Source: Stramenopiles sp. TOSAG23-6
Taxonomy: Eukaryota
NCBI GenBank assembly: GCA_900128565.1
Contig: LT635954.1
Coordinates: 1-33,457, forward strand
DNA length: 33,457 nucleotides
Direction: 5' to 3'
Shown: in pieces, positions 1-33,457 of the stretch
Layout of the letters: every line of letters begins with the position of its first letter
How positions within the stretch are numbered: position 1 is the stretch's first letter
Program-made: the position numbers and the translations under genes
The notes under the pieces: model-generated
Told to the model about the DNA's origin: nothing
Database searches by the model: none
Seen by the model: the letters and a program-made list of their open reading frames with translations, nothing else

Positions 1-61
1 ACGAAATTTTGTACCTAACAAAAATTAAGTTTTTTTTTTGAAATATTTTTCCAAAATACAT
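1..61 (+). other. 3' part of non-canonical intron (sirtuin)
   Basis: acgaaattttGTACCTAAC (11-19)…ttgaaatatttttccaaaatacat, then sirtuin coding sequence. Near-identical to the 3' half of intron 7354..7450. Exact end uncertain (57-62). Confidence 0.75.
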
Positions 62-62
62 T

Positions 63-1110
63 TGTGGTGGACTAATCAAACCAGATATTACATTTTTTGG
101 TGAGAATATTCCAAAACAGGTTGCAAATCTTCTGACCAAAGATCGAAGCAAAGCTGATCTTTTACTTGTGATGGGCACTTCACTTCAAGTAGCTCCAATG
201 TTAGTTTTCATCATGAATTTCAAATTTATTTTTTTTTACTATGAAAATTTTGTACCTAATGAATTTCAAACTATACACATACTATCCAAAAAAATATGAG
301 TTCTGTGTTGGGTTTTTTACCTGGTCATGTTCCTCAAATTCTCATTAACTTGAAACCTATAAAGATCGAAAAGCAACATAAAAGTGATGGATTTGACGTT
401 GAACTATTAGGAGAAAGTGATTCTATCATTCAAGTATGTTTCAATTTCGAATTTCGATTTTTTTTTTGAAATTTTTTTTTTAAATATTTTTTTGAAATTT
501 TTTTTTCCTAGAACATTTTATACCTAACGACTTTTTTTTGTCAAATATTTCTTCACAAGACGTTATTTAGTGAAACGATTACACGATGACGAAAATTCTA
601 GATTAAACAATAAAAAAAATAAATCAAAAAAGAAAATCATTCAATGGACTCTTCCAGAATCACTTCATTGTCAACGCACTGAAAATATTAACGTACCAAT
701 TCGACTGTCGGAGAGGCGGTTTGGCTTGTTTGTTGTCCACTTTACTTTCAAATTTATTTTCTTTTGTACCAAATTTCGTACCTAACGGAATGTGGTTTTT
801 GAATATTTTTTCACGATATTTCTTTTCAGGTACCAATGAAATGCTTTATAGAGAATCCATGAATAATAATGATAGTAATAATAATGTTGTAGTTGAAGAC
901 AAATCTGTATGTTTTGATTATAAGTGTGACTCATGTGGGAAGACTATTTGTATAAAAAGATCTAGTTGTACTATTTGTTTTGATTTTGATTTGTGTATTG
1001 ATTGTGCTCTGAATGGAGAAGCAGAGGCGCATACAAAAGAATTTAGTGACAAAAATACATCAACCAATGATGAGAAATATTTTCATGTTTTTCATCAATT
1101 TTCTATATGA
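63..1110 (+). CDS. Class I sirtuin (Sir2/SIRT1-like NAD-dependent deacetylase), 5'-partial, with C-terminal ZZ-type zinc finger; exons ~63..199, 298..433, 564..723, 821..1110
   Basis: Manual translation gives CGGLIKPDITFFGE…ADLLLVMGTSLQVAP|MSSVLGFLPGHVPQILIN…FDVELLGESDSIIQ|YLVKRL, matching Sir2 motifs KPDITFFGE, GTSLxVxP, VPQxLIN and LLGxxD. The last exon has CDSC…CTICFDFDLCIDC…H (ZZ pattern). Confidence 0.9.
200..297 (+). other. Non-canonical intron GT…AT (98 nt), sirtuin
   Basis: gttagt…gtacctaat(252-260)…aaaatat. Removal gives QVAPMSSVLGFLPGHVPQ, with the same 8-residue P-to-P spacing as Sir2/SIRT1. The GAG at 298-300 would give one residue fewer. Confidence 0.8.
434..563 (+). other. Non-canonical intron GT…GT (130 nt), sirtuin
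   Basis: gtatgt…tacctaac(521-528)…agacgt. Removal gives GESDSIIQYLVKRL, colinear with SIRT1 GDCDVIINELCHRL. The AGs at 559 and 570 are out of frame with donor 434. Confidence 0.72.
724..820 (+). other. Intron of the same family (~97 nt), boundaries ambiguous (GC…TT, GC…AT at 817, GC…AG at 829, or 719..815 GT…CG)
   Basis: Frame changes between ORF 570..785 and ORF 721..1110; gtacctaac at 778-786. The 724..820 splice yields RFVFSG, resembling SIRT1 RYIFHG. Confidence 0.6.
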
Positions 1111-5800: not shown

Positions 5801-5954
5801 GGCTGACAATGACGGAAATACCCCATTGTATATTGGTATATATTGCTTGCAAAAAAAGGCAGAAGAATGAAAGTTTGATATAGGATTGAATGTTTTTAAT
5901 TTAGAATTTGACGCTATTCTTTAAATAAAAACACCATCAATCTTCAAATTTTTG

Positions 5955-6176
5955 ATTTTGAGAAATCTTCAAAGAAAGTGATTAATTAATATATATAGCT
6001 ATAGTACTATGATAATGTGTATCATTTATATCAACGATTGTAATACACTACAACATGTCATTATTCTAAGAAAATATCATTATTTCAAATAAATTATTAT
6101 GTCATATGAACAATTTTTATAAATTTCCAACAAATTTCAAATTTAATCATTTTTTAGTAGGTATAGGGTACCGGGT
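5955..6176 (+). repeat. ~210-bp AT-rich direct repeat, copy 2
   Basis: Similar to 4968..5181 and also ends in gtaccgggt. Confidence 0.92.
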
Positions 6177-6275
6177 GAACGAAAAAAAATAACTGACATT
6201 AAAACGGACAAACGGATACTCGAGCTTCAAGGCTACTACAAATACTAAAAAAGATTTTTAGTTACAAAAGCCAGA

Positions 6276-7755
6276 ATGTCTGCTCCCAGAGGTCCCCGAT
6301 TCAACTTTGGTTCTGCATCTGATCGAGATAGTATAGTATATGGCTGCTGTGAACCTGGGTTTAAACATCCCGAGGTAGGTACACCAAGGACTCCGAGGAC
6401 TGCTCCAACAAATTTGAGTTCTGTCGAGACCTGGGCTTCATTTATGAAAAGTGCAAAAATATCTCGAGTAATTGTCCTGCTTACTCCGGAAGAATATTCT
6501 TTCTTTGAAACATCATTGTTATCAACATATAGAGAACATTTTAGTACTGTCATTCGTGTGGCACCGTATACAGAAGGATCGCTTGAAGGTTTACTAAGAG
6601 CCTTCAGTGACGCCGAAGAAGCAGGAGAAAAAGTTGTCGTCCACTGCGCAACTGGCCAAGGAAGAACCGCAGATGCATTGGCTCTATGGTTACACCATCG
6701 ATATAATCTTAGTGTAAGTGATGCCGTGGAAGAAATATCGCTTCATGCTAAAAAAATACGTACTTTAAGACGACCGACTGTCAGTGGTTTATTGAAGATT
6801 CTTGAACCAAATTTACGACCGCCTCAAATGGGTCAAAATTTGTTGAGAAATTCGCATTCAGAGTACGGTATGCTGACATCACGCAGTGCATATAGTGGAA
6901 TGACTCCAAGATTACCTATAGCTACACCACTCTCATCATCAGATTCATTGGTATCTTCTGAAGATACGAAAAAAGTTGATAAAAACCAATTTCACGTTAC
7001 ATTAATTCAAATGGGAGGGACTATTGACAAAATGTATCCAGTGGGTGATGGTAGCGAACCTAATGGTGGTGCAAAAGCTATGATTGGCGATTCTGCTACA
7101 GCACGATTATTTGCGTTACTTCCAATTGGATTTACGTATGACGTCATTTCCCTATGTCGTCGGTCAGGTACTGCAAAAAACGAAGATTTAAATCGTTTAG
7201 TTAGAATATGTAGTATCGCAGAATCCAACAAGATTCTTGTGACACACAGTGAAGAAGGAATGGTTCAAACAGCACAATATTTACGACAGAACATTTTAGC
7301 AGCAGGTAAACATGGTGCGCTTTCAAAGAAAACAATTGTTTTCACTGGTGCATGTATGTTTTTTTTTTTTTTTCAAATTCCAAATTTGTTTTTCGTACGA
7401 AATTTTGTACCTAACAATAATTTTTTTTGAAATATTTTTCCAAAATATATTTATTCCAGAAGTCTACAAAGCCTCTGATGCTGATTTTAATGTTGGTGTT
7501 TCTGTTGGTGCATTGAATGTTTTAAAACGTGGCGTTTTTATTTGTATGAATGGTCGAGTATTTGAGTCTTCAAGATGTCAAAGAATAGAAAAAACTGGAT
7601 TTTTCACTTCTATTCCAGGTCAAAAACGAGTACCTAGTCATATAAACAAATCATCTATACCAAGTATCACTGACAAAGGCTTAAAATCTCCAAAGAAATC
7701 TACGAAAAAGCTTCAGACCAAACCACCTCCTACAATACCACATTCAAGAGGGTAA
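6276..7755 (+). CDS. Fusion of a Cys-based (CX5R) protein-tyrosine/dual-specificity phosphatase domain and an asparaginase-like domain; exons 6276..7353, 7451..7755 (460 aa)
   Basis: VVVHCATGQGRT P-loop, followed by asparaginase N-domain motifs MGGTIDK, ILVTH, IVFTGA|FIP…SDADFNVG…GVFICMNG, restored by splicing. Confidence 0.85.
7354..7450 (+). other. Non-canonical intron GT…AT (97 nt)
   Basis: gtatgt…gtacctaac(7407-7415)…caaaatatat. Removal restores TGAFIP (asparaginase TGAxxP). The nearest CAG (7459) would create an in-frame TAA. Confidence 0.88.
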
Positions 7756-7831
7756 AAGTTTTGCAGATATAATATAATATAATATAAAATAAACCGATAT
7801 TTTTTCTTTATTTGTTTTTTTTGAATCAAAG

Positions 7832-8689
7832 TCATTTCCAAGATAAACTTTTACTATCAATAACAGAAATTCCCGCTTCAGTTGCAAACGATAAAAACTC
7901 CTGAGCATTAGCTTCAAACCCAGATACAGGTGATTGACAATCTTCAAGTAAGAATATATCACGTAATCGTTCTTTTGGCCAACGAGGAACCATATCCCGA
8001 ACTGTAAAATTTACACAATGGCTCATGGCCTGTCCACAAACTAACACACGATTTGCACGAAGAAGTCGAGCAAGAAGCTTTTCATCGTAAAAGGTACGTG
8101 GGTCTGAATCAACAGGAACATCTGCTCTAAATGCACTGTAACATTCAGTTAACATATTGTTTCCTTTTATAAAGTAATGAACTGTTCGACTTTCTTTTTC
8201 TGCCTGCTTCACCCACTTGTCAAGGGCATCATTGATTGAGTCTACAACATTGTGACCACGTGTACCGATGAGACAATGCTCAGGCCAAATACAAAGCTTA
8301 AAACGACCTTGCTTTTCCAACTCTTGACAATATTTCAGCCCCCAGGTCTTGTGAGAGGGATTTCTAGTAGTCCATTTTCCCGAAGTAATATCTTCTGAGG
8401 TAATGATTGTAAATGGTTCAGGAGATGCTCCAGTAGCAGTACTCACCCAAAATCCAGGATGTGCAATGTGCATAGCTTCATGTGTATCCAGAGTTATAAT
8501 AATATCGTTGATTTTATCGCCGTGTGTTGCGATCATGTCAGCAATTCGCGAAGCATCGGCGTCTGCAGTTTCTATGGCTAGCGAGCCACCTGGATGGAAA
8601 TCTACTTGAGGATCAATGATAAACAATGTGGTTCCACCAGACTCGGGAAGCGTGGGAGTGCCATAAAAGTCTGTGCTAGGTGCCTCCAT
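7832..8689 (-). CDS. Nicotinamidase/isochorismatase-family cysteine hydrolase (PncA/Pnc1-like)
   Basis: IIDPQVDF…GSL…LDTH…WPEHC…KG…YSAF…GQAMSHCV contain the Asp/Lys/Cys triad and metal-ligand motifs; first ATG at 8689. Confidence 0.85.
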   Translation of the reverse strand: MEAPSTDFYGTPTLPESGGTTLFIIDPQVDFHPGGSLAIETADADASRIADMIATHGDKINDIIITLDTHEAMHIAHPGFWVSTATGASPEPFTIITSEDITSGKWTTRNPSHKTWGLKYCQELEKQGRFKLCIWPEHCLIGTRGHNVVDSINDALDKWVKQAEKESRTVHYFIKGNNMLTECYSAFRADVPVDSDPRTFYDEKLLARLLRANRVLVCGQAMSHCVNFTVRDMVPRWPKERLRDIFLLEDCQSPVSGFEANAQEFLSFATEAGISVIDSKSLSWK

Positions 8690-8891
8690 TGTCGGTAAGT
8701 TTTGTTCTAGTGTCAAAAAAAACAAAGCTTAATGGATAGATTGCGTCTTCTTGAAGGCTTTTAGTAATATTCTTCTTAAACTTTACTTTACATGACGAGT
8801 GAAGAAGGCGTGAAGAAGCTGCGAGGTGTCAAATTTGACCCGAACCGAGATGATTGATTGGTGCAGTTACCGGGTACCCGGTTATCTGAAA

Positions 8892-10364: not shown

Positions 10365-10431
10365 AAATTGGAATCCCACCATATATTGAGGGGGAAACAT
10401 AACAGCACTGGCTAAATAAAAAAAATTCCAT

Positions 10432-11769: not shown

Positions 11770-14020
11770 ATGATTGATACATCGAAGTTTTCAGTGCAAC
11801 AACTGAAGAACCAGTTGAAAAAGTATAATCTTGAGGTGGACGATACAACAGATGTAGAAGAAACTTTGGTTCGCGACTCCTTAGAACGTAAACTTCAAGA
11901 AGTACTCACACGCAGTGCAGAACCATACAAGTGGTTTACGTGTCAAGCTTTAGGAGATTTCCGACCTACTCTTCGCGAAACCGTAGGTGCGTGTGTACAT
12001 AAGGATACCTTGTACGTTTTTGGAGGATACTCAAATGGAAGGCGTCTGAATACTTTAGAAATGTATAATTTCAAAGAGAGAAAATGGAAAAAAGTAAAAT
12101 CCAAAGGAACACCACCAAAAGAACGTAGTTGGGTTTCTACTGTAGTGTATAAAGATGAGTGTATTATTGCCTTTGGAGGTCTTGGTGAAAACAGTTGTTT
12201 TTCAGATGTTCACAAATTTACTTTTGCCAACCAAACCTGGACTGAAGTGACATGTACGTTTTCATCATTCCTTTTCAATTTATTTTTTTATACCAAATTT
12301 CGTACCTAACGAATTTCAAATTGTTGAAATTGTTTTTTACAATGCATGTACAGGTTGTGTACCCGAAGAAAGGTCAAAAGTTGATGCATGTATTGTTGGT
12401 GATATATTATATATCTACGGGGGTAAGAATTGGGATGAAATTGCATTAACGGACCTTTATCAACTTGATCTCTCGGCAACTCCTGAACCAATTTGGACAA
12501 AATTGGAACTGTTGGGAAACGGTCCGAATCGAGCAATAAATAACGTTGATGGACTAATCCATCAAATGTTTTATAATGGACATCTTGTTGTTTTCTGGAA
12601 TGGTGTCATTTTTTTTCTACATCTAGAAACCAAAACTTGGCGTCGAAAAATAACGTTTGGAAAGTCACCAAAGTGTATGTTCTATTTTTTTTCAATTTTG
12701 ATTTTTTTTCATACGAAATGTTGTACTTAACGATTTTTTTTTGAAATACTTTTCTAAAATACATGTAAAAGCAGACCAAATGGTACAGGAATTGTGCTAC
12801 ACAACAACAATTTATTAGTATTTCAGTCAGGTGAAACAAATCTAGATACTCAGTCTGAACCACCATACGCGATATTTTCAGTAGTTAATGTTCTAAATAC
12901 GTTTTCATCATTCACTTCATTTTTATTTTTGTAAAGAAACATTTTGTACCTAACAAATGTTTGTACTTGAAATATTTTTTCACAGCATCTATTTAAAAAC
13001 ATTTGAATGGAAAACAGTGAAAACTTCCAGGTATCCTACATCTAGGCTTGGTGCTTCTTGTGTTGTGTATAATGATTGCCTATATTGTTTTGGTGGTTCT
13101 GTTCGTTGTCCTGATACAAACTGGGAAAAGAATCATCATGTACATTTTCAAAATTAAATATAAAAGTTACTTTTTTTGTACCAAAACTTGTACCTAACAT
13201 TTTTTTTGAAGCAAAAAACAATTCTTTCACAATACATGTTGCTACCGATAGCATAGGTGGTTATGCTTATTTAGGTGATTTAAATGGAATGACGCTCGAA
13301 AAGTCAGATTTATCTACACCATATTCGAAATTTGTTCATAATAGGGAATACTGTGACGCTATATTTATTTGTCAAACCCAAAGGTTTTACACGCACAAAA
13401 TAGTTCTTGCGTCTCACAGTGAATATTTTAAAGGATTATTTTCTTTCCCGAGAACTTGGAAATACGATCTTAAGCAGAATTTTGATGGGCAATGTGACAG
13501 TGATGTGGGTAAAGATGTGTACGATGTCAGCGAAGTAACTCCCGAGACGTTTCTTGCTATACTGCAACATTGTTATGATTGCCTTGATTTTGAAGAAACA
13601 GAAATTGATGCCTTGGAACTATTAGAATTTGCGGACAAATATATGTTGTCATCTTTGAAAGATACATGTATTTCACTAATTGCACAAAATTTAGACTGTG
13701 ATAACGTACTTGCAGTATTAACATTGACACAAGGGCGAAATATGAGAGGATTAGCATTGTTGTGCACAAGTTACATCTCCAAACATTTTCAAGATGTTGT
13801 ATCAACACCTGCATTTATAGATTTATGCCAAACGCAACCTCATTTAGTGCAAAACTTATGCAAATATAACACAGCGACAACACTACGGGACAAACGAAAA
13901 GCTCTACTGTCGACAGATATAGATGTAGATATAATTAACTTTAGCCCGGATAAAAATAATAAATTGATTGAAGTATCTGAAAGTTCTCAAAATAAAATGA
14001 AAAAGAGGCGCGCCACATAA
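11770..14020 (+). CDS. Kelch-repeat + BTB/POZ(-BACK) protein (LZTR1-like order) with possible N-terminal SAP-like motif; exons 11770..12253, 12348..12674, 12765..12896, 12991..13139, 13238..14020 (~624 aa)
   Basis: Kelch motifs LYVFGG, IIAFGG, LYIYGG, LYCFGG and GxxPxxR; BTB motifs HKIVLASHSEYFKGLF and ELLEFADKYML. The exons join in frame after removal of four family introns. Confidence 0.88.
12254..12347 (+). other. Non-canonical intron GT…AT (94 nt)
   Basis: gtacgt…gtacctaac(12302-12310)…aatgcat. Gives EVTCTGCVPEER, keeping the kelch GxxPxxR. CATGTAC is repeated at both junctions. An in-frame CAG at 12353 is an alternative. Confidence 0.78.
12675..12764 (+). other. Non-canonical intron GT…AT (90 nt)
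   Basis: gtatgt…gtacttaac(12723-12731)…aaatacat; contains an in-frame TAA. The AGs at 12771 and 12774 are out of frame with this donor. Confidence 0.78.
12897..12990 (+). other. Family intron (~94 nt), best read AT…CT; alternatives 12901..12988 GT…AT or 12901..12985 GT…AG
   Basis: atacgttttcatcattc matches the donor gtacgttttcatcattc of 12254; gtacctaac at 12946-12954. The 12897..12990 splice gives kelch-like VLNLKTFEWK. Confidence 0.62.
13140..13237 (+). other. Non-canonical intron GT…AT (98 nt)
   Basis: gtacat…gtacctaac(13190-13198)…caatacat; phase-0 join to the BTB frame. The downstream AGs (13251, 13256, 13274) are all out of phase. Confidence 0.82.
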
Positions 14021-20255: not shown

Positions 20256-21688
20256 AAATGTTAGGTACAAGTTTTGGTACAAAAAAAGTAACTTTTATAT
20301 TTAATTTTGAAAATGTACATGATGATTCTTTTCCCAGTTTGTATCAGGACAACGAACAGAACCACCAAAACAATATAGGCAATCATTATACACAACACAA
20401 GAAGCACCAAGCCTAGATGTAGGATACCTGGAAGTTTTCACTGTTTTCCATTCAAATGTTTTTAAATAGATGCTGTGAAAAAATATTTCAAGTACAAACA
20501 TTTGTTAGGTACAAAATGTTTCTTTACAAAAATAAAAATGAAGTGAATGATGAAAACGTATTTAGAACATTAACTACTGAAAATATCGCGTATGGTGGTT
20601 CAGACTGAGTATCTAGATTTGTTTCACCTGACTGAAATACTAATAAATTGTTGTTGTGTAGCACAATTCCTGTACCATTTGGTCTGCTTTTACATGTATT
20701 TTAGAAAAGTATTTCAAAAAAAAATCGTTAAGTACAACATTTCGTATGAAAAAAAATCAAAATTGAAAAAAAATAGAACATACACTTTGGTGACTTTCCA
20801 AACGTTATTTTTCGACGCCAAGTTTTGGTTTCTAGATGTAGAAAAAAAATGACACCATTCCAGAAAACAACAAGATGTCCATTATAAAACATTTGATGGA
20901 TTAGTCCATCAACGTTATTTATTGCTCGATTCGGACCGTTTCCCAACAGTTCCAATTTTGTCCAAATTGGTTCAGGAGTTGCCGAGAGATCAAGTTGATA
21001 AAGGTCCGTTAATGCAATTTCATCCCAATTCTTACCCCCGTAGATATATAATATATCACCAACAATACATGCATCAACTTTTGACCTTTCTTCGGGTACA
21101 CAACCTGTACATGCATTGTAAAAAACAATTTCAACAATTTGAAATTCGTTAGGTACGAAATTTGGTATAAAAAAATAAATTGAAAAGGAATGATGAAAAC
21201 GTACATGTCACTTCAGTCCAGGTTTGGTTGGCAAAAGTAAATTTGTGAACATCTGAAAAACAACTGTTTTCACCAAGACCTCCAAAGGCAATAATACACT
21301 CATCTTTATACACTACAGTAGAAACCCAACTACGTTCTTTTGGTGGTGTTCCTTTGGATTTTACTTTTTTCCATTTTCTCTCTTTGAAATTATACATTTC
21401 TAAAGTATTCAGACGCCTTCCATTTGAGTATCCTCCAAAAACGTACAAGGTATCCTTATGTACACACGCACCTACGGTTTCGCGAAGAGTAGGTCGGAAA
21501 TCTCCTAAAGCTTGACACGTAAACCACTTGTATGGTTCTGCACTGCGTGTGAGTACTTCTTGAAGTTTACGTTCTAAGGAGTCGCGAACCAAAGTTTCTT
21601 CTACATCTGTTGTATCGTCCACCTCAAGATTATACTTTTTCAACTGGTTCTTCAGTTGTTGCACTGAAAACTTCGATGTATCAATCAT
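20256..21688 (-). pseudogene. Mirror copy of Kelch gene, truncated inside intron 4 (lacks BTB exon)
   Basis: Reverse complement of 11770..13202; introns mirrored at 21111..21204, 20694..20783, 20468..20561 and 20256..20318 (partial). Confidence 0.8.
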
Positions 21689-21985
21689 ATTACCTATACC
21701 CCAAGAAATAAACTCCTGGCGTCGTATCTCCAGTGATTTAAATTCATTTATCCATTATGATTGTTGTTGTCGTAGATACGAAGCTCGCTCCTCTTTTTTG
21801 ACTTTCGGAATCAAAATGAGTCAAAAAAAAAAATGAGTCAAAAAATGACAGCGCGTCAGTCGCGAATAGGACAACAGTTACTAACTCACTATTTATATTG
21901 TTGTGTGAGACTCGCTTGAAGTCAACGAAAAATATTTTGAAGGTCGAGCCGGAGTCCTTCACCAACCTTCTTCGTTCACCTACAA

Positions 21986-23026
21986 ATGTTGAAAAGAATG
22001 CTCTCAAAGTCACCTGCACCTTCGAATCCACCTTCGCCGTGTTTACCAAAAAAAACGATTCTTGTAATCGATGGTGGTGAAACAAATTGGATAGCAATTT
22101 TTGCTTCGTCGCGTACTTTGATGGTTAGTGGTAAAAATCATGAAATTATTATAGAACAGTGCGGTTGGTCTGACATTAGTCTAACATCAAGCTGTGAGAA
22201 AGGCGCATCACCTTCTGTGCTTGTACATATTCGTGTACGCTCAAAGAATGGTCCACGCTTCGATTCGCGTAAACTTATTAAACCCGATTTTGTTCTCGTA
22301 AGAAACGAAGTGAGAGGCGTTGGTGCAGGTACGGATTGGCGGAAAATTTTATATGGGTTCATGTATTCGCAAGTTCCTTCGCTAAATAGTTGGGAATCAA
22401 TTATTATGTTTTGCGAGCGACCTATCAGCCATGCGTCTCTTCTAACAATTCGAAGCAGATTGGGAGAGGATGTCTTCCCAGTAATTCCTCAATCGTATTA
22501 TGAAAATCATGGTAACATGATGTGGTGGGAGGACTTCCCGGTAGTTTGCAAAATTGGTCATGGCCAAGCGGGTTATGGTAAAATCAAGATAGAAAATAAA
22601 AATCGATTTGATGATGTAAAATCAATCCTGGCAACAACAAATCAATATTGTACTGTAGAGCCTTTTATAAATGGTGCGTTTGATTTACGTATTCAAAGAA
22701 TTGGTCTGGATGACTCCAAATGTCATTATAGAGTATTTCAGCGTCGATCTGTCTCTGGAAACTGGAAGACGAATGTAGGAGCAAGTGTTATTGAAGAGAT
22801 TGAAATGAATGAAAGATATAAATTATGGGTGGATGAAGCTGCGAAATGTTTTGGTGGACTTACTATTGTAACAGTTGATGCTATACACTGTGAAGAAACA
22901 GGGAAGGAATTTATATTAGAGATGAATGGAACATCTTCAGGACTAATGCCGGAATGTGCTGCAGAAGACAATGGATATATTAAAGATGAAGTATTAAATA
23001 TTGCAAAAAAGGCATGGGAAAAATAA
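21986..23026 (+). CDS. Synapsin-like ATP-grasp protein (mirror copy)
   Basis: Identical translation to 10432..11472. Confidence 0.88.
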   Translation: MLKRMLSKSPAPSNPPSPCLPKKTILVIDGGETNWIAIFASSRTLMVSGKNHEIIIEQCGWSDISLTSSCEKGASPSVLVHIRVRSKNGPRFDSRKLIKPDFVLVRNEVRGVGAGTDWRKILYGFMYSQVPSLNSWESIIMFCERPISHASLLTIRSRLGEDVFPVIPQSYYENHGNMMWWEDFPVVCKIGHGQAGYGKIKIENKNRFDDVKSILATTNQYCTVEPFINGAFDLRIQRIGLDDSKCHYRVFQRRSVSGNWKTNVGASVIEEIEMNERYKLWVDEAAKCFGGLTIVTVDAIHCEETGKEFILEMNGTSSGLMPECAAEDNGYIKDEVLNIAKKAWEK

Positions 23027-23093
23027 ATGGAATTTTTTTTATTTAGCCAGTGCTGTTATGTTTCCCCCTCAATATATGGTGGGATTCCAATTT

Positions 23094-24566
23094 TCAATGG
23101 TTTTTCTTATTTTGCTCCGCTTCCTGCAAGTCCTCCAAGCACTCGTTAGCGCTTTCTAGACATGAGTCACTCACGATACCTTTCTCCTCAGCTATCTTGA
23201 TTGCAGCCAGTAGTGTACTAATACTATCACTTTTACATACCTCCTTCAGTGCATCGTCTGCCTCCTGCTCTTGCAAGTACTCCAAGCACTCGTTAGCGCT
23301 TTCTAGACATGACTCACTCACGATACCTTTCTCCTCAGCTATCTTGATTGCAGCCAGTAGTGTACTAATACTATCACTTTTACATACCTCCTTCAGTGCA
23401 TCGTCTGCCTCCTGCTGTTCTTGTTCTTCTACTTCTTCGAGATGTCTTTCCTTGTCCCACTTTTCCCAAGACTCGTCTTTTAATCGCTCTAACCATAAAC
23501 GCAATAACAGTTTATCTTTTGGTGTATCTAATGTGCCTTTTAGTGCTTCAAAGGCTGCATTAATTTCCTTCCAACCACCACCAGCTTGATTTTTTTGACG
23601 AACTGTTCCATACCCCCCACAAATGCATGTATAGTAGTCATAATTACCTCGTGGTCCTAGTGGCGGCCGATCACGGTCAAAACTTGTGTCACAATATCGT
23701 TCAATCACTGCGTGTATGAAACGTGCAGCATCAACGGCAGTGGTAAATGGGTATATTTCTATAGGTCCTTCCATATTAGCCCACCTAATCTCCATCGTAA
23801 AATCAATGGCAGGTGCAGCTCTGGCAGCTCTGGCTGCAGCAACGGCTGCTCTATCAGCTGCGTCCTGCAGTTTCGACTCTGCATAACCATACAATCGACA
23901 TGTCGTCCTTAGTTTTTCCGAAGCCCCTATGGCCGCTTCTATCAATTCGTTGTTTAAGATGTACTCATCTCCCACCTCAAAATAACTTTCCAATATCTTA
24001 ATAATTGTCTGCTTAAAAATTTCTTCATTTCCATGCTTCTGGAGAGAGAGAGCTTCGATTTTGTCAAGTCCCTGAGCTTGGCTGTGGGGAAACGCCGCGA
24101 TCAAAATATTGGCCTGCTCCTGCAAGAAATCGACGGTAAAGTATGGTTCGGTAAAGTATGGTTCTTCTTTGTGATTCCAAAATGGTTTGGTTATTTCGGG
24201 ATCTTTGAACCTCACTAACTCTTTTATTACTTCTCTGAAAAAAAGTACATCTTCATTTCGCTTTATTAAAGAAAGGATAGCATGTGCTTTCCCTTTTTCA
24301 TCCATCAACTTTTGCGCTTCTTGCAGTGCATAGCAAAAACTCTCTGAGTATGGATCGACCAGCTCCATCAGGTGGTGAAAAGTATAACCAGTCGTCCATG
24401 CTGGTTCTAGTTGCTGCATACGATCTTTGGCCAGTTTCAGCTGCTGCTGAGCATGTTGTAATTTTGCTTTGGCATCGAGTACTGCTTGCCTTTCGGCATC
24501 AATCGAAGGAGTCATTTTCGGAATTGAGTTGCAAATATTAATTGCATTTGAAAACCCCGGAACCAT
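23094..24566 (-). CDS. Hypothetical helical protein (mirror copy)
   Basis: Mirror of 8892..10364. Confidence 0.7.
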   Translation of the reverse strand: MVPGFSNAINICNSIPKMTPSIDAERQAVLDAKAKLQHAQQQLKLAKDRMQQLEPAWTTGYTFHHLMELVDPYSESFCYALQEAQKLMDEKGKAHAILSLIKRNEDVLFFREVIKELVRFKDPEITKPFWNHKEEPYFTEPYFTVDFLQEQANILIAAFPHSQAQGLDKIEALSLQKHGNEEIFKQTIIKILESYFEVGDEYILNNELIEAAIGASEKLRTTCRLYGYAESKLQDAADRAAVAAARAARAAPAIDFTMEIRWANMEGPIEIYPFTTAVDAARFIHAVIERYCDTSFDRDRPPLGPRGNYDYYTCICGGYGTVRQKNQAGGGWKEINAAFEALKGTLDTPKDKLLLRLWLERLKDESWEKWDKERHLEEVEEQEQQEADDALKEVCKSDSISTLLAAIKIAEEKGIVSESCLESANECLEYLQEQEADDALKEVCKSDSISTLLAAIKIAEEKGIVSDSCLESANECLEDLQEAEQNKKNH

Positions 24567-24768
24567 TTTCAGATAACCGGGTACCCGGTAACTGCACCAA
24601 TCAATCATCTCGGTTCGGGTCAAATTTGACACCTCGCAGCTTCTTCACGCCTTCTTCACTCGTCATGTAAAGTAAAGTTTAAGAAGAATATTACTAAAAG
24701 CCTTCAAGAAGACGCAATCTATCCATTAAGCTTTGTTTTTTTTGACACTAGAACAAAACTTACCGACA

Positions 24769-25626
24769 ATGGAGGCACCTAGCACAGACTTTTATGGCAC
24801 TCCCACGCTTCCCGAGTCTGGTGGAACCACATTGTTTATCATTGATCCTCAAGTAGATTTCCATCCAGGTGGCTCGCTAGCCATAGAAACTGCAGACGCC
24901 GATGCTTCGCGAATTGCTGACATGATCGCAACACACGGCGATAAAATCAACGATATTATTATAACTCTGGATACACATGAAGCTATGCACATTGCACATC
25001 CTGGATTTTGGGTGAGTACTGCTACTGGAGCATCTCCTGAACCATTTACAATCATTACCTCAGAAGATATTACTTCGGGAAAATGGACTACTAGAAATCC
25101 CTCTCACAAGACCTGGGGGCTGAAATATTGTCAAGAGTTGGAAAAGCAAGGTCGTTTTAAGCTTTGTATTTGGCCTGAGCATTGTCTCATCGGTACACGT
25201 GGTCACAATGTTGTAGACTCAATCAATGATGCCCTTGACAAGTGGGTGAAGCAGGCAGAAAAAGAAAGTCGAACAGTTCATTACTTTATAAAAGGAAACA
25301 ATATGTTAACTGAATGTTACAGTGCATTTAGAGCAGATGTTCCTGTTGATTCAGACCCACGTACCTTTTACGATGAAAAGCTTCTTGCTCGACTTCTTCG
25401 TGCAAATCGTGTGTTAGTTTGTGGACAGGCCATGAGCCATTGTGTAAATTTTACAGTTCGGGATATGGTTCCTCGTTGGCCAAAAGAACGATTACGTGAT
25501 ATATTCTTACTTGAAGATTGTCAATCACCTGTATCTGGGTTTGAAGCTAATGCTCAGGAGTTTTTATCGTTTGCAACTGAAGCGGGAATTTCTGTTATTG
25601 ATAGTAAAAGTTTATCTTGGAAATGA
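24769..25626 (+). CDS. Nicotinamidase/isochorismatase-family hydrolase (mirror copy)
   Basis: Mirror of 7832..8689. Confidence 0.85.
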   Translation: MEAPSTDFYGTPTLPESGGTTLFIIDPQVDFHPGGSLAIETADADASRIADMIATHGDKINDIIITLDTHEAMHIAHPGFWVSTATGASPEPFTIITSEDITSGKWTTRNPSHKTWGLKYCQELEKQGRFKLCIWPEHCLIGTRGHNVVDSINDALDKWVKQAEKESRTVHYFIKGNNMLTECYSAFRADVPVDSDPRTFYDEKLLARLLRANRVLVCGQAMSHCVNFTVRDMVPRWPKERLRDIFLLEDCQSPVSGFEANAQEFLSFATEAGISVIDSKSLSWK

Positions 25627-25702
25627 CTTTGATTCAAAAAAAACAAATAAAGAAAAAATATCGGTTTATTTTATATTATATTATATTATATCTGCAAAAC
25701 TT

Positions 25703-27182
25703 TTACCCTCTTGAATGTGGTATTGTAGGAGGTGGTTTGGTCTGAAGCTTTTTCGTAGATTTCTTTGGAGATTTTAAGCCTTTGTCAGTGATACTTGGTA
25801 TAGATGATTTGTTTATATGACTAGGTACTCGTTTTTGACCTGGAATAGAAGTGAAAAATCCAGTTTTTTCTATTCTTTGACATCTTGAAGACTCAAATAC
25901 TCGACCATTCATACAAATAAAAACGCCACGTTTTAAAACATTCAATGCACCAACAGAAACACCAACATTAAAATCAGCATCAGAGGCTTTGTAGACTTCT
26001 GGAATAAATATATTTTGGAAAAATATTTCAAAAAAAATTATTGTTAGGTACAAAATTTCGTACGAAAAACAAATTTGGAATTTGAAAAAAAAAAAAAAAC
26101 ATACATGCACCAGTGAAAACAATTGTTTTCTTTGAAAGCGCACCATGTTTACCTGCTGCTAAAATGTTCTGTCGTAAATATTGTGCTGTTTGAACCATTC
26201 CTTCTTCACTGTGTGTCACAAGAATCTTGTTGGATTCTGCGATACTACATATTCTAACTAAACGATTTAAATCTTCGTTTTTTGCAGTACCTGACCGACG
26301 ACATAGGGAAATGACGTCATACGTAAATCCAATTGGAAGTAACGCAAATAATCGTGCTGTAGCAGAATCGCCAATCATAGCTTTTGCACCACCATTAGGT
26401 TCGCTACCATCACCCACTGGATACATTTTGTCAATAGTCCCTCCCATTTGAATTAATGTAACGTGAAATTGGTTTTTATCAACTTTTTTCGTATCTTCAG
26501 AAGATACCAATGAATCTGATGATGAGAGTGGTGTAGCTATAGGTAATCTTGGAGTCATTCCACTATATGCACTGCGTGATGTCAGCATACCGTACTCTGA
26601 ATGCGAATTTCTCAACAAATTTTGACCCATTTGAGGCGGTCGTAAATTTGGTTCAAGAATCTTCAATAAACCACTGACAGTCGGTCGTCTTAAAGTACGT
26701 ATTTTTTTAGCATGAAGCGATATTTCTTCCACGGCATCACTTACACTAAGATTATATCGATGGTGTAACCATAGAGCCAATGCATCTGCGGTTCTTCCTT
26801 GGCCAGTTGCGCAGTGGACGACAACTTTTTCTCCTGCTTCTTCGGCGTCACTGAAGGCTCTTAGTAAACCTTCAAGCGATCCTTCTGTATACGGTGCCAC
26901 ACGAATGACAGTACTAAAATGTTCTCTATATGTTGATAACAATGATGTTTCAAAGAAAGAATATTCTTCCGGAGTAAGCAGGACAATTACTCGAGATATT
27001 TTTGCACTTTTCATAAATGAAGCCCAGGTCTCGACAGAACTCAAATTTGTTGGAGCAGTCCTCGGAGTCCTTGGTGTACCTACCTCGGGATGTTTAAACC
27101 CAGGTTCACAGCAGCCATATACTATACTATCTCGATCAGATGCAGAACCAAAGTTGAATCGGGGACCTCTGGGAGCAGACAT
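25703..27182 (-). CDS. CX5R phosphatase/asparaginase-like fusion (mirror copy; intron 26008..26104)
   Basis: Mirror of 6276..7755. Confidence 0.83.
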
Positions 27183-27281
27183 TCTGGCTTTTGTAACTAA
27201 AAATCTTTTTTAGTATTTGTAGTAGCCTTGAAGCTCGAGTATCCGTTTGTCCGTTTTAATGTCAGTTATTTTTTTTCGTTC

Positions 27282-27503
27282 ACCCGGTACCCTATACCTA
27301 CTAAAAAATGATTAAATTTGAAATTTGTTGGAAATTTATAAAAATTGTTCATATGACATAATAATTTATTTGAAATAATGATATTTTCTTAGAATAATGA
27401 CATGTTGTAGTGTATTACAATCGTTGATATAAATGATACACATTATCATAGTACTATAGCTATATATATTAATTAATCACTTTCTTTGAAGATTTCTCAA
27501 AAT
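27282..27503 (-). repeat. ~210-bp repeat (mirror of 5955..6176)
   Basis: Part of the inverted arm. Confidence 0.9.
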
Positions 27504-27657
27504 CAAAAATTTGAAGATTGATGGTGTTTTTATTTAAAGAATAGCGTCAAATTCTAAATTAAAAACATTCAATCCTATATCAAACTTTCATTCTTCTGCC
27601 TTTTTTTGCAAGCAATATATACCAATATACAATGGGGTATTTCCGTCATTGTCAGCC

Positions 27658-28164
27658 TTATTTATTGACATCTGCACCAGCAGCAATAAGTTGCCCAACT
27701 ACTTCAGCATGACCACTCGCTGAAGCAATCCACAATGGGGTGCGCCCGTCTTCATCAACATGATTGACATTAGCACCATTCTCAAGAAGTAGTCGAACTA
27801 CTTCTGGATGACCATTCAGTGAAGCAGCATACAATGGATTAATTCCGAAATTAGGATTAGTCTGATTTATCTTAATTCCCTTTACTTTGAGGAGTTTTTC
27901 AACTACTCCCACACGACCATTCGCTGAAGCAATCCACAATGGGGTTCTTCCCAATTCATCAGCCTGATTGACATTAGCACCTTTACCAAGAAGTAGTCCA
28001 ACTACTTCAACATGACCGCCATATACAGCATAATGTAAGGCGGCCCATCCTTTTTTTGGAACCCGGAGTGCCCGCATTGCCCGCGCGCGCATACGGCCTA
28101 ACCGGTAAGGGGTTGTACGCCGTACAGTCTTCTTTTTTGCTGCAATCTTATTAATTTTTACCAT
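27658..28164 (-). CDS. Ankyrin-repeat protein (mirror copy)
   Basis: Mirror of 5294..5800. Confidence 0.83.
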   Translation of the reverse strand: MVKINKIAAKKKTVRRTTPYRLGRMRARAMRALRVPKKGWAALHYAVYGGHVEVVGLLLGKGANVNQADELGRTPLWIASANGRVGVVEKLLKVKGIKINQTNPNFGINPLYAASLNGHPEVVRLLLENGANVNHVDEDGRTPLWIASASGHAEVVGQLIAAGADVNK

Positions 28165-28276
28165 TTTATGAAAGTAGTCGTAGGGTACGTACTACTAGTA
28201 ACACTTTTTGCTTGTCAGACCGACCTCGAGCTGGTGAGACGCTGGTGAAACACAATTTGAAAATCAGAATAATATT

Positions 28277-28490
28277 ACCCGGTACTACTAAAAAATGATT
28301 AAATTTGAAATTTGTTGGAAATTTATAAAAATTGTTCATATGATGTAATAATTTTTTGAAATCATGATTCTTTCTTAGAATAATGACATGTTGTAGTGTA
28401 TTACAATCGTTGATATTAATCACATACATTATCATAGTACTATAGCTATATATATTAATGAATACACTTTCTTTGAAGATTTCTCAAAAT
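28277..28490 (-). repeat. ~210-bp repeat (mirror of 4968..5181)
   Basis: Part of the inverted arm. Confidence 0.9.
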
Positions 28491-28626
28491 TTAGATATAT
28501 CATATAAAATATATTATATAATCCACGAGTATGAAAATTTTATAAAAAAAATGTTTATATATATTCAAAAGTTTGTTTTTTTAGTCTTCCCATTGTTATA
28601 ATTTACAACCAAAACTCTTGCGAATT

Positions 28627-29961
28627 TCATGGGGTGCTCCACCCGCCATCAGGCGGAGTCATTGGACGAGATGCTGCAGTTGTAGATGATGCCATAGATT
28701 CAGCAAATGTACTAGCACCAGATAAAGCTTGAGGAAGTTGCTCAGATGACCATGGAGAAGACAGCTCAGGCGCAGATGCAAGACTTCCCCGTTCTTCTGA
28801 TGGTGATGGTGGATTAAAAGCTGCCATACTCGCAATACCACGTGCACGATCGTCCGACCTTTTCCAATCAGGCTCCACTTCATCACGTTTACGCTTAACC
28901 AAGGGCAAGCGTGGTCTACGACGTCCTCCACTTGCAGATCGGCCTGCAGATGAGGATGACATTGCTCCACCTTCAAATAGGCTTGCAGATCTGTCTGACG
29001 GCTGTCCAAATAGAGCCGAACTCGCGGTAGGTGGCTTACGCAAGAGTGGTCTAGGATGTACTCCACCAAATCTTAGACCATGACGCCCCGCTCCACCTTT
29101 ATCGCCTCGTTCTACGTATCTGTCAACTTCGAATTCATACTTATCATCTAATGGAATTTCAAAAGAAATTGTTCCACCTTTATTTGCTTTACGCGGAGAA
29201 AGCTGCGCAAATATGACATACTCTTTTGCTCCACAGTTCGACTGCTCAGTTACAAAGCCATCGTAGAACTCATGCAAATTGTGCCACATCCAAATATAAA
29301 ACAGCGGGTCACCATGCCTTTCATTCTTTAAATATTTTTTCGAAGGACTATGATGTGTACTTCTTTGCACTTGTCCATGACCATTTTTATAACCAAAAGC
29401 ACCACTCAAAAAAGCACGAAAAATAAACGGTCCTTTTTCAGTCTCTTGATAGTTCCATAATTCCTTTGCCAATTCGTTTGAGAAGTTGAAGAGTCTCTTT
29501 CCGTCTTTACCTGTATATTCATACACCGAGACTTTTGGATTACTTCTTGTAGCTTTGGAGCGGCAGTAAAGCTCCTGCACTTTTACCCGGTTATCAAGAA
29601 AGGGAACAATGTAAACGTCGTTTCGGGTGGTTTCTCCAGTCAAAATTTCAAAATCACGTTTCCCTTCAGGATAAGCACCAAATTTGTCGCATGATCTATA
29701 CAGCTTCTTTCCAGATAATGGTACTGGCTCTAAAAAGTCTGCCTCAATCCTTGGTTTATCAATAAATTTCCATTGGTGCATTCGGCTCCCGGGAGTCATA
29801 ATGTTGTCCTTGGTGATTTCCTTTTGTTGTTCTGCGGTGGGCCCACTTACAACAAATCCTGTTGGTACAACCCTAAATACCAAATCGGCAGTATCGGCAG
29901 AATAGCACATCACAACCAATGCGAGACAAAGAAAGACATTCATTTTTGATACAATTACCAT
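28627..29961 (-). CDS. Hypothetical secreted protein (mirror copy)
   Basis: Mirror of 3497..4831. Confidence 0.7.
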   Translation of the reverse strand: MVIVSKMNVFLCLALVVMCYSADTADLVFRVVPTGFVVSGPTAEQQKEITKDNIMTPGSRMHQWKFIDKPRIEADFLEPVPLSGKKLYRSCDKFGAYPEGKRDFEILTGETTRNDVYIVPFLDNRVKVQELYCRSKATRSNPKVSVYEYTGKDGKRLFNFSNELAKELWNYQETEKGPFIFRAFLSGAFGYKNGHGQVQRSTHHSPSKKYLKNERHGDPLFYIWMWHNLHEFYDGFVTEQSNCGAKEYVIFAQLSPRKANKGGTISFEIPLDDKYEFEVDRYVERGDKGGAGRHGLRFGGVHPRPLLRKPPTASSALFGQPSDRSASLFEGGAMSSSSAGRSASGGRRRPRLPLVKRKRDEVEPDWKRSDDRARGIASMAAFNPPSPSEERGSLASAPELSSPWSSEQLPQALSGASTFAESMASSTTAASRPMTPPDGGWSTP

Positions 29962-30292
29962 TGAAGCCCTGTGTAATGTATACTGCAAGAAGCTTTGCAA
30001 TTCTTGAAAAGTTTTCTTTAACTGACTAGGTAGATTATTTCACCAGTAGTGGATCTTTTTTTAACGGCCGCAAAAAAATGGGCGATTTCGATTTCGTGGG
30101 GTCAAGTTCAAGTTCAACCCAAAAAAAAAGCCAAACATCCATCATCATCAATCAAACGAACTCGTACACTGTACCAGTATACCATCCCGTGTAGCTAGTA
30201 GTCTCTTCCAAAAGGGTATTATAGTAGTAGGCCTTACCACCAGAGGACCTGATATAACTACGTGTTTATTATTACTGGTTAGTTTTAGTATA

Positions 30293-32296
30293 ATGACAGT
30301 GGCTTGTGATTCTCAATCTTTGAATAAGACAAATGATGTATTACGAGTGGTTAGAAAGTGTCTTGCGTGTGGTGTAACAAAGGCAAATCTCCTTCGGTGC
30401 TCTGGCTGTCGTCTCGTACACTTTTGTGGTCGAGCGTGTCAGATGAAGATATGGAAGTTTCACAAAAGAGCTTGTCAGGCAGCAAGAAAGAAATCCGCGG
30501 TTCAAAGTGGAAATAGGCAAGCACAATTATGTAGTAATGAAGTGATTGAAAAAGCTAAAAATGCTGGTCTTGCTGCGGGTAGGATAGCCTTGGCAGGCGG
30601 GAAAACTAAAGAAAAGGCAGCTGCCGCCGCTGCAGCCGCTACGATTGAAGCTTTTGAAGCTTTACAACCAGTTCCTGTCAAATCTTCATCAAAAGATTCC
30701 AAGTGCACAGCAGCTATTTCCCCAGAAGTGTCCTTACGTCTAGGTATGCAGGCAGCCCATGATGCGCTTGCTTCTGGATCATCAAATGAAGAAGCTGTTG
30801 CAGCTGCGATTGCTAAAATTGATGAGGACACGGTTCCACCAAAGATGACTAAACGTATTGACAGTGTTAGTGATAGTGTAGAGGTTCCTTCTCATAGTTC
30901 CAATGGTATTAAAAATGACAAAACTATAGAAAAAGAGAATAACAATACAATTGTGAACAATATCCCGTCAACAGTTTTACAAAACGACAAACCTATAGAA
31001 AAAGAGAATACCAATACAATTGTGAACAATATCCCGTCATCAGTAGAGTGTATTTTATCTGCACTCTCTATGGAAGTTCAACGACTTAATCATCTCCGTT
31101 CCCTAGAGACTAATCTTGCATTTACTGAGGCCAGTTCTCGTTTTGAAGATTTGCTAAAGATATTAAAGCCATATCGTACATCTCATTGTTTCGAATGGGC
31201 TGCACTTAACTTCAATAGTGCTATGCTCTGTCAAACAATGTGGAATTGTTTAATAGATCCACCAAAGTTACCAAACGTGCTCAAGGTTCCTGCCGTTCAC
31301 TTTTCAGGGTATATGCATTCTCGTAATGGGAGTAATTATATTATGACTGCATTGCGTAGATTTAAAAATGCTTTGAAGTCATATCATGCGGCTGTGGCAC
31401 AAGGATGGGATGCACGTCATCAAATAATTGACTGTAATCGTGCAATACAGATTTGTCAAAACATTATTACTCAAACTCAGAAAGATTTAGATTCTTTTAT
31501 CGAAACATCTGACATAATGTCGAATGACTTAAGAAATGCAGTTACACATAATATGAAGATTTCCTACTGCTTGAGTGGTACTATGTTTCGTCTTATGGGT
31601 ATTCCAGGATACAATGAATTATCTGATACAAGTCAAATGAATTGTAAAATAGTGGAGAATAATAATTGTAATAATGATAAAACAGTTGAAAAACAAAAAT
31701 TAAATAATGTAGAAACAACACAAAAAGCTCAAGAATTGATGTATATGCTTTCAATGAATGGAACAAATGAAGATTTTGAGAAATGTAGTACACAAATTGT
31801 ATTGACAGGACCATTTACTCGAGTAACAAAAGAATGTGTTTTAGATATTGAAGAAAAAGCTGTAAATTGTTTAGATTGTTGTCCTATGTGTAAGAAAAAA
31901 GTATCCAGTGGTTTTGGGTATGTTGCATACTTATGCAAAGAAAAATCAATTTCGAATTTGCCAAGTGGTGTCAGTACAATAGACCCAGAACAAAAGTATG
32001 TACAAAATCCACAATTAAGTATAGAATTAGGTATAGAAAGTTTTCGTTCATATTTTATACCTTGTATTTGTTGTATTTCGTGTATCAAAATTCTTGAAAA
32101 TTATATTCCAGTCGCTATTAACGAGGATGGACTAAAATGTGGAGATCAAAGAGAGAAACATTTTTTAGGTAAGGAATTTGGTATGAAATATTGGGATTTG
32201 AAACGATTATCACCGGCTCATCGAATTCCTGGCGTCATTGGAACATCCCTGTCTTATTCAGATAAGATTTTATATGAAGAATATCAAAAGATTTAA
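30293..32296 (+). CDS. MYND-type zinc finger protein (mirror copy)
   Basis: Mirror of 1162..3165. Confidence 0.85.
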   Translation: MTVACDSQSLNKTNDVLRVVRKCLACGVTKANLLRCSGCRLVHFCGRACQMKIWKFHKRACQAARKKSAVQSGNRQAQLCSNEVIEKAKNAGLAAGRIALAGGKTKEKAAAAAAAATIEAFEALQPVPVKSSSKDSKCTAAISPEVSLRLGMQAAHDALASGSSNEEAVAAAIAKIDEDTVPPKMTKRIDSVSDSVEVPSHSSNGIKNDKTIEKENNNTIVNNIPSTVLQNDKPIEKENTNTIVNNIPSSVECILSALSMEVQRLNHLRSLETNLAFTEASSRFEDLLKILKPYRTSHCFEWAALNFNSAMLCQTMWNCLIDPPKLPNVLKVPAVHFSGYMHSRNGSNYIMTALRRFKNALKSYHAAVAQGWDARHQIIDCNRAIQICQNIITQTQKDLDSFIETSDIMSNDLRNAVTHNMKISYCLSGTMFRLMGIPGYNELSDTSQMNCKIVENNNCNNDKTVEKQKLNNVETTQKAQELMYMLSMNGTNEDFEKCSTQIVLTGPFTRVTKECVLDIEEKAVNCLDCCPMCKKKVSSGFGYVAYLCKEKSISNLPSGVSTIDPEQKYVQNPQLSIELGIESFRSYFIPCICCISCIKILENYIPVAINEDGLKCGDQREKHFLGKEFGMKYWDLKRLSPAHRIPGVIGTSLSYSDKILYEEYQKI

Positions 32297-32347
32297 AATA
32301 AATATTGTAACATTTTATTATAAAGAATTAAAGATGCTTATTTATGT

Positions 32348-33395
32348 TCATATAGAAAATTGATGAAAAACATGAAAATATTTCTCATCATTGGTTGATG
32401 TATTTTTGTCACTAAATTCTTTTGTATGCGCCTCTGCTTCTCCATTCAGAGCACAATCAATACACAAATCAAAATCAAAACAAATAGTACAACTAGATCT
32501 TTTTATACAAATAGTCTTCCCACATGAGTCACACTTATAATCAAAACATACAGATTTGTCTTCAACTACAACATTATTATTACTATCATTATTATTCATG
32601 GATTCTCTATAAAGCATTTCATTGGTACCTGAAAAGAAATATCGTGAAAAAATATTCAAAAACCACATTCCGTTAGGTACGAAATTTGGTACAAAAGAAA
32701 ATAAATTTGAAAGTAAAGTGGACAACAAACAAGCCAAACCGCCTCTCCGACAGTCGAATTGGTACGTTAATATTTTCAGTGCGTTGACAATGAAGTGATT
32801 CTGGAAGAGTCCATTGAATGATTTTCTTTTTTGATTTATTTTTTTTATTGTTTAATCTAGAATTTTCGTCATCGTGTAATCGTTTCACTAAATAACGTCT
32901 TGTGAAGAAATATTTGACAAAAAAAAGTCGTTAGGTATAAAATGTTCTAGGAAAAAAAAATTTCAAAAAAATATTTAAAAAAAAAATTTCAAAAAAAAAA
33001 TCGAAATTCGAAATTGAAACATACTTGAATGATAGAATCACTTTCTCCTAATAGTTCAACGTCAAATCCATCACTTTTATGTTGCTTTTCGATCTTTATA
33101 GGTTTCAAGTTAATGAGAATTTGAGGAACATGACCAGGTAAAAAACCCAACACAGAACTCATATTTTTTTGGATAGTATGTGTATAGTTTGAAATTCATT
33201 AGGTACAAAATTTTCATAGTAAAAAAAAATAAATTTGAAATTCATGATGAAAACTAACATTGGAGCTACTTGAAGTGAAGTGCCCATCACAAGTAAAAGA
33301 TCAGCTTTGCTTCGATCTTTGGTCAGAAGATTTGCAACCTGTTTTGGAATATTCTCACCAAAAAATGTAATATCTGGTTTGATTAGTCCACCACA
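32348..33395 (-). CDS. Sirtuin with ZZ finger, 5'-partial (mirror copy; introns 33161..33258, 32895..33024, 32638..32734)
   Basis: Mirror of 63..1110. Confidence 0.88.
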
Positions 33396-33457
33396 AATGT
33401 ATTTTGGAAAAATATTTCAAAAAAAAAACTTAATTTTTGTTAGGTACAAAATTTCGT

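Follow-up and report, generated by a model that had tools for sequence, protein, structure and literature searches.

Nine short introns in contig LT635954.1 of Stramenopiles sp. TOSAG23-6, whose whole analysed stretch of 33,457 nt is called the window in the following, are copies of one sequence family. Judged from reading frames and protein homology, the absence of an AG acceptor is well supported for at least three of these introns and likely for six. On balance, we interpret the family as introner-like introns of U2 type with non-AG 3' ends, in what would be a compact marine eukaryote. One copy, hereafter the focal intron, interrupts a phosphatase/asparaginase-like gene in the piece presented above; four copies (introns 1 to 4) lie in a sirtuin-like gene and four (introns A to D) in a Kelch-BTB gene. 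The window is built of two arms, 1-13202 and 20256-33457, which are 100% complementary over 13,202 nt, and a centre of 7,053 nt. Because the left arm is repeated as a mirror image, positions 1-20255 (20,255 nt) were treated as the non-redundant part.

In alignment, the nine introns are collinear end to end, as copies of a sequence of about 90-130 nt. The shared blocks are, from 5' to 3' and with a slash for the junction, (C)AT/GTAYGTTTTCA.., TTTCAAATTTA, a T run, ACCAAATTTY, a box resembling a branch site (the box in the following), a second T run, TTGAAAT and ATTTTTYCACAATACAT/. A profile made from this alignment matched, in an nhmmer search of the window, only the nine copies and their mirror images, with E values from 3e-19 to 1e-9. 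All nine copies are found in genes of the + strand and in sense orientation. Seven of the eight complete introns start with GT (GTATGT three times, in addition to GTACGT, GTACAT, GTTAGT and GTTTGT), and intron C starts with ATACGT. The last intron base is T in all nine aligned copies, with a terminus of YRT in nine and AT in eight. These copies are the only introns evident in the window, the other genes seeming to be single open frames.

To describe where the introns end, a frame test was carried out in which the family-homologous donor was held fixed and every in-frame 3' end was listed for the eight complete introns. The homologous YRT end was in frame and stop-free in six of them (chance of at least six, 0.02), and the first AG downstream of the box was usable in two. 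Three introns (3, B and D) lack any in-frame AG with the family GT donor: in intron 3, which would end in GT and whose homologous end is in frame and stop-free, the AGs at 559 and 570 are both out of frame, as are those at 12771 and 12774 in intron B and those at 13211, 13251 and 13256 in intron D, where again the homologous end is in frame. In the case of the focal intron, the nearest AG (7458-59) gives an in-frame TAA.

Homologous proteins allow a closer look at three of the junctions. Removal of the focal intron gives the product ...IVFTGAFIPEVYKASDADFNVG, which aligns gap-free to eight of the nine homologues covering the junction, the ninth (P0006) having a 2-residue insertion; the closest homologue, P0004 (55% identity), reads LTGAFTPEVNKDSDACFNIG at this point. 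Next, 1,423 in-frame, stop-free excisions were scored against a hidden Markov model of the nine homologues. Removals of 97 nt starting at 7352-7359 ranked first with 492.6-493.2 bits, the excision 7354-7450 scoring 493.1, and of these, the two with a GT start have AT ends. Among the GT-AG choices, the best reached 477.9 bits at rank 413 of 1,423. In the case of intron 2, yeast Sir2 (2hjh_A) has its residue 270 opposite the P of the last codon before the intron and its residue 271 opposite the M formed from AT/G, and SIRT1 is likewise collinear over the AT junction, so that two solved sirtuins pass this point with no gap. In the case of intron A, the AT end gives WTEVTCTGCVPEERSK, with a length equal to that of the orthologue P0001 and with the Gly common to P0001 and P0053. 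For introns 2, A and the focal intron, the cuts equivalent to the supported junction include none with an AG end, and collinearity of the predicted protein with its homologues is regained only by a non-AG cut. The first-pass annotation had proposed that the introns lack an AG acceptor, and the frame test, the focal excision scores and the orthologue junctions all support it in this.

Table 1. Members of the intron family and their mirror copies (positions of the window; the box is the branch-site-like motif)
Feature	Gene	Position	Strand	Length (nt)	Termini	Box	Remarks
Focal intron	phosphatase + asparaginase-like	7354..7450	+	97	GTATGT...ATATAT	7407-7415	
Intron 1	Sir2-like	1..61	+			11-19	cut by window start; 3' end set at homologous ...ATACAT by family alignment
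Intron 2	Sir2-like	200..297	+	98	GTTAGT...AATAT	252-260 (GTACCTAAT)	
Intron 3	Sir2-like	434..563	+	130	GTATGT...GACGT	520-528 (ATACCTAAC)	
Intron 4	Sir2-like	728..819	+			778-786	family-homologous ends
Intron A	Kelch-BTB	12254..12347	+	94	GTACGT...TGCAT	12302-12310	
Intron B	Kelch-BTB	12675..12764	+			12723-12731 (GTACTTAAC)	3' end 12764 (family-homologous ATACAT) or 12770
Intron C	Kelch-BTB	12897..12988	+		begins ATACGT	12946-12954	ends placed within about 2 nt (family alignment)
Intron D	Kelch-BTB	13140..13237	+	98	GTACAT...ATACAT	13190-13198	
Mirror copies of the nine introns		20256..33457	-				found by nhmmer; D copy shortened at 20256, partial match 20321-20259

Several points weigh against reading the copies as a family of introners with non-AG ends. 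Regarding the junctions, they were placed by reading frame and homology, which leaves a few nucleotides of play, and the focal 97-nt removals from 7352 to 7359 lie within 0.6 bits of each other. The family ends of intron 4 (728-819) are out of frame, the in-frame form being GT732...AT819 (88 nt). Two orthologues fit intron B gap-free at 12770, 6 nt past the homologous CAT, and a cut there would read GT..AA or, equivalently written, TA..AG. In intron C the donor at 12897 does not keep the frame with the homologous T end, the in-frame ends being 12984, 12987 and 12990. Regarding the family as a whole, the profile search found no intergenic or antisense copy and no autonomous partner in this window, and the copies come from only three genes of one organism, in a window of which half is duplicated.

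For intron 1, the upstream exon lies outside the window and the end was set by family alignment, not by reading frame; no AG occurs from position 29 to the conserved CGGLIKPD exon, which matches sirtuins. A PDB search with the exon after intron 3 gave no match, and no homologue spans that junction. The AG at 829 downstream of intron 4 is out of frame with the donor at 728, in a linker region without a homologue. For intron C, the orthologues do not discriminate among the candidate ends. A search with the last exon of the Kelch-BTB protein gave no match, and a search of representative proteins returned mostly generic Kelch proteins and one added orthologue, P0053. Intron C also stands out at its 5' end: its first base is A and not G (ATACGTTTTCATCAT, compared with GTACGTTTTCATCAT in intron A), and it is the only copy without an in-frame cut at the homologous 3' T. 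Its first and last bases may have changed together.

The best-conserved internal block of the family is the box, in which TAC.TAA is invariant in all nine copies. That it occurs in every one of the nine introns, as noted in the first pass, was borne out with at most one mismatch throughout: GTACCTAAC is exact at 11, 778, 7407, 12302, 12946 and 13190, and forms with one mismatch start at 252 (..AAT), 520 (ATAC..) and 12723 (GTACTTAAC). In the whole window, 22 matches with at most one mismatch were counted against 4.23 expected, a number reached in none of 100 shuffles, although nine of the 22 are mirror copies and the nine originals are homologous, not independent events. Within 1-20255 the exact 9-mer is found six times on the + strand, each time in an intron, and never on the - strand; an equal frequency outside introns or on the antisense strand, which would have spoken against the motif, is thus not seen. 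The core TAC[CT]TAA[CT] occurs there 11 times on the + strand (in the nine introns and at 1425 and 1437) and not on the - strand. Inside the core of the box, only the pyrimidine between TAC and TAA varies, C in eight copies and T in one.

The box contains a CTAAC core and is followed by a T-rich stretch, as expected of a branch site; the segment 3' of it has 27-52% T. The UAC-Y-UAAC box most likely supplies the branch adenosine, as far as its sequence and surroundings can tell. Five of the nine copies have a weaker motif, TTCAC/TTTAC, some 9 nt before the end, which is an alternative candidate and counts against this assignment. A further box between the motif and the 3' end had been described before and is present, in a form like TTGAAAT, in most copies. 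In three copies (766-786, 12290-12310 and 13178-13198) a second GTACC or ATACC stands 12 nt 5' of the box (..GTACCAAATTTCGTACCTAAC..), and the predicted fold of the focal copy has the upstream GTAC base-paired to that in the box.

Taken together as a mechanism, the GTAYGT at the 5' end would serve as a standard donor of the major spliceosome, branching would take place at the UAC-Y-UAAC box before the T-rich stretch, and the 3' cut would fall at the conserved terminal box ...YACAATRCAT/, 33-39 nt past the branch box, giving GT...AT termini and, in one copy, GT...GT. We infer a spliceosomal cut, with branching at the box and with a 3' site recognised through its sequence or context and not through its distance from the box. 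Only the second step would then be unusual, with exons joined after ...CAU instead of YAG. In its widest form, the proposal is that the major spliceosome routinely joins exons at ...CAU/, about 36-40 nt past UAC-Y-UAAC, in a recently expanded GU-AU family whose 3' site is defined by the terminal box or by distance. This form we put forward tentatively, as a serious possibility.

The branch-pairing sequence of U2 is GUAGUA, and U12-type introns have the consensus [AG]TATCCTT at the 5' end and a TCCTTRAY box 10-20 nt from the 3' end. UAC and UAAC can pair with canonical U2, as this pairing is commonly given, when one pyrimidine is bulged, and therefore a variant U2 is not required. The U12 5' splice site is present in none of the eight complete introns, and the box, TACCTAAC or TACTTAAC, stands at 33-42 nt from the end, compared with the 10-20 nt of the U12 branch box. 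Of the features of U2-type introns, the family has the GTRNGT-like 5' end and the YTNAY/CTAAC branch consensus before a pyrimidine-rich tract, and it does not have the terminal AG. A search of positions 1-20300 with Rfam gave no matches and thus no small nuclear RNA gene.

Regarding the distance between box and 3' end, boundaries were taken from reading frame, family alignment and protein homology combined. The spacing is 37 nt in intron 2, 35 in intron 3, 35 in the focal intron, 37 in intron A, 33 or 39 in intron B (two orthologues favouring 39) and 39 in intron D; intron 1 would have 42 nt if it ended at the homologous T. Six of the eight distances given in the first-pass annotation were obtained again, and the two that differ, for the boxes at 778 (earlier 34) and 12946 (earlier 36), belong to introns 4 and C, whose ends are placed only provisionally. 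From these distances it had been argued that the spliceosome measures a fixed length from an altered branch site, with a variant U2 or a U2/U12 hybrid pairing with TACCTAAC. The model accounts for the apparent non-use of AG and for a spacing within 33-39 nt, or 35-39 nt if intron B ends at 12770, an end without the usual CAT. The 33-nt expansion of intron 3 lies in its 5' half and leaves the 3' spacing at 35, and U12-type splicing tolerates GT-AT and AT-AN termini (excerpt of PMC1557818).

On the other side, the box is equally fixed from the 5' end, at 46-53 nt in six of the seven introns measured and at 86 nt in intron 3 with its internal T-rich expansion. As all the introns derive from a single element of about 95 nt, a constant spacing follows equally well from common descent. 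Moreover, since the 3' terminus is itself conserved, recognition by sequence is as likely as recognition by distance. The distances also vary by 6 nt, or by 9 nt with intron 1, the U12-type 5' end is absent from all complete introns, and the box can pair with canonical U2 in the manner described above. The step from near-fixed spacing to a ruler is therefore not supported, and we consider a ruler of this kind unlikely; the near-constant spacing was mainly inherited from the ancestral element.

This ancestral element was probably a mobile one able to form a hairpin. In the focal copy an end-to-end hairpin of -14.9 kcal/mol is predicted (z -3.68), with a 9-bp terminal helix, and none of 200 shuffles folds as well. 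Read as its reverse complement, the 3' hexamer ATACAT equals the 5' junction AT/GTAT. Direct repeats across both junctions measure 7, 5, 4, 3, 2 and 0 nt in six introns, always around a CAT/GT core, and these repeats may be part of the element or result from a preference for certain targets. Hairpin and repeats would fit descent from a mobile element, in which case excision at the same point of the repeated CAT/GT would restore the host sequence. Against such an origin, seven of the eight copies are without a significant fold (z 0.08 to -1.25, five of them from -0.72 to -1.25 and two near zero), and for this reason it rests mainly on the focal copy.

The same features could be read differently, namely that pairing in the RNA between the 5' junction (AT/GTAT) and the 3' end (ATACAT/) brings the ends together, and that this helix and the direct repeats set the cuts. 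Such pairing has been proposed for the introner elements of Amoebophrya and for the nonconventional introns of euglenids. The terminal complementarity, the 9-bp helix of the focal copy and the direct repeats overlapping the boundaries speak for it, and the Amoebophrya elements have inverted repeats of 8-20 nt and direct repeats of 3-5 nt at their boundaries (excerpt of PMC7789003). What makes it decidedly unlikely here is that seven of the eight copies have no significant fold, that the ends of introns 2, 3 and A are only weakly complementary and lack compensatory changes, and that the strong GTAYGT and the branch box favour ordinary spliceosomal recognition. Likewise, the Amoebophrya type, defined by ends without conservation that are joined by an inverted repeat of 8-20 nt, does not describe this family, in which one copy out of eight has a strong terminal helix.

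Another account would hold that these are ordinary GT-AG or other AG-ended introns, the non-AG ends being an artefact of junctions placed by homology. Loop lengths can indeed differ between homologues, intron B can be written TA..AG, and in-frame AGs exist for two of the three best-supported introns. However, the one at 299-300 in intron 2 would delete one residue, and the one at 12353 in intron A would delete TG, including the shared Gly. The account also draws on P0003, the only near-identical protein match, a 99%-identical predicted coding sequence from EukProt that splices the focal intron as ...IVFT/ASDADF.. (7347-7473) with a GT-AG pair. This pair drops GA...EVYK, which is conserved in the nine homologues covering the site, and P0003 is therefore read as a forced canonical prediction and not as evidence. 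GT-AG choices for the focal intron score 15-25 bits lower and its nearest AG gives a stop, and with a GT donor no AG is in frame in introns 3 and D. We thus regard ordinary AG-ended introns as very unlikely. Automated models of this organism probably mis-splice the family.

That the elements are never removed from RNA, being recent gene-inactivating insertions or artefacts of amplification or assembly, is scarcely credible: a perfect inverted duplication with an arm end inside one such intron hints at assembly or amplification trouble, but removal restores the frame in six of eight cases and leaves long open exons with good homology, and the copies have diverged from one another while all keeping the sense orientation.

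Regarding other identities, an origin from a giant virus or mirusvirus was rejected, as introns described from such viruses are overwhelmingly GT-AG, and the Pfam scan of the window found no viral hallmark. DNA elimination of the ciliate type was set aside as well, since the supported focal junction is not a TA-to-TA excision. When the family was sought by pattern scans of contigs from viral and prokaryote genomes, only chance matches were returned, and in a pattern scan of metagenome contigs none of the 47 inspected loci resembled it.

The inverted duplication itself touches the family at two places: the left end of the window lies inside intron 1, and the inner arm end (13202) lies inside intron D, 4 nt past its box. 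On the right side, the shortened copy of intron D adjoins an apparent 5' leader and the ATG of another gene. The duplication may exist in the genome as a true palindrome; alternatively, amplification or assembly may have produced a chimera, with the repeated intron as its starting point. Single N bases stand at 17091 and 18201 in the central unique region, one of them within the open frame 17755-18489.

The window is gene-dense, with a GC content of 29-42%, and its DNA is present in seawater metagenome runs and in a small coded data set. Its gene content is eukaryotic according to the Pfam scan, which detected the sirtuin-like and Kelch-BTB genes, MYND, ankyrin and Arm-repeat genes, a gene in which a dual-specificity phosphatase is joined to an asparaginase-like domain and a synapsin-like ATP-grasp gene. 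The fusion (PF00782 and PF00710 in one protein, 6276-7755) is a conserved architecture, because it is found again in most homologues. The synapsin-like protein (10432-11472, - strand; Synapsin_C E 9e-59, Synapsin E 7e-20) has animal synapsins as its nearest Atlas clusters, in an apparent protist host. An open frame of 917 aa at 14110-16863 (- strand) with Cys-rich CPxGxYC-like repeats is without a Pfam match.

Few signals in eukaryotic genes are as constant as the AG that closes an intron, and only a small number of lineages is known to escape it on a large scale, e.g. Fritillaria, Amoebophrya and euglenids. Because it keeps a textbook 5' end and branch box while dropping AG, the present family would offer a natural system in which the 3' step of splice-site choice stands alone. 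If the interpretation is correct, mobile elements would have a further way to become introns, and the automated gene models in print for genomes of this kind would contain systematic splicing errors at the family's introns. Many errors like that of P0003, the one automated model examined, may then be present in the corresponding protein sets. The literature search returned no description of this motif or of a GT-AT intron family, and the main texts of papers on the protist group in question, supplements excepted, describe no unusual introns. Our best reading is a transposon-like intron family with non-AG 3' ends that is apparently undescribed in the literature searched.

Introns of the yeast U2 type have the form GUAUGU ... 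UACUAAC ... YAG. The present family resembles them in the strong GTAYGT, the UAC..UAAC box with its CTAAC core, the T-rich tract and a spacing of tens of nucleotides; it differs in the extra pyrimidine of the box, in the AT (once GT) end in place of AG, and in copies that are homologous over their full length. Strong branch boxes with constrained spacing have been reported in intron-poor lineages (excerpt of PMC2483917). With U12-type introns it has in common a highly conserved 5' end and branch box, the tolerance of non-AG ends and a 3' choice tied to the branch site (excerpt of PMC1557818), whereas the 5' consensus and the distance of the box from the end set it apart, as given above. The same excerpt describes GT-AT introns as rare, with seven of U12 type in four species and one conserved U2-type case; what was exceptional in that survey is the rule within the family of this window.

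Like introners, intron families derived from transposons that occur in marine protists and fungi, the family consists of multiple similar short introns in unrelated genes (nine copies in three genes), with possible traces of terminal inverted repeats and of a repeat across both junctions, so that splicing would restore the original sequence (excerpt of PMC12130899). Unlike them, it has non-AG 3' ends. According to that excerpt, transcript confirmation was required in the introner survey before a family with unfamiliar splice sites was retained; forced GT-AG models together with this requirement would cause a family like this one to be missed.

In the case of Amoebophrya, similarities extend to a marine protist with short repeated introns, direct repeats at the boundaries, some end-to-end hairpins and no GT-AG rule (excerpt of PMC7789003). 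There, according to the same excerpt, no conserved dinucleotide pattern exists and U1 was not found, whereas GT, branch box and terminal T are conserved here; the coding GC of 54-58%, compared with 29-42% in the window, led us to drop an Amoebophrya identity. In the case of Fritillaria borealis, a whole intron class without AG is spliced by the major spliceosome, and the 3' end is recognised by altered factors, namely divergent U2AF paralogues (excerpt of PMC13326754); that organism is an animal and both intron ends are non-canonical, while here the 5' end is canonical. As far as these two excerpts go, the escape from GT-AG on a large scale in Amoebophrya and in Fritillaria took place without a conserved 5' end, and it is in keeping this end that the present family differs from both.

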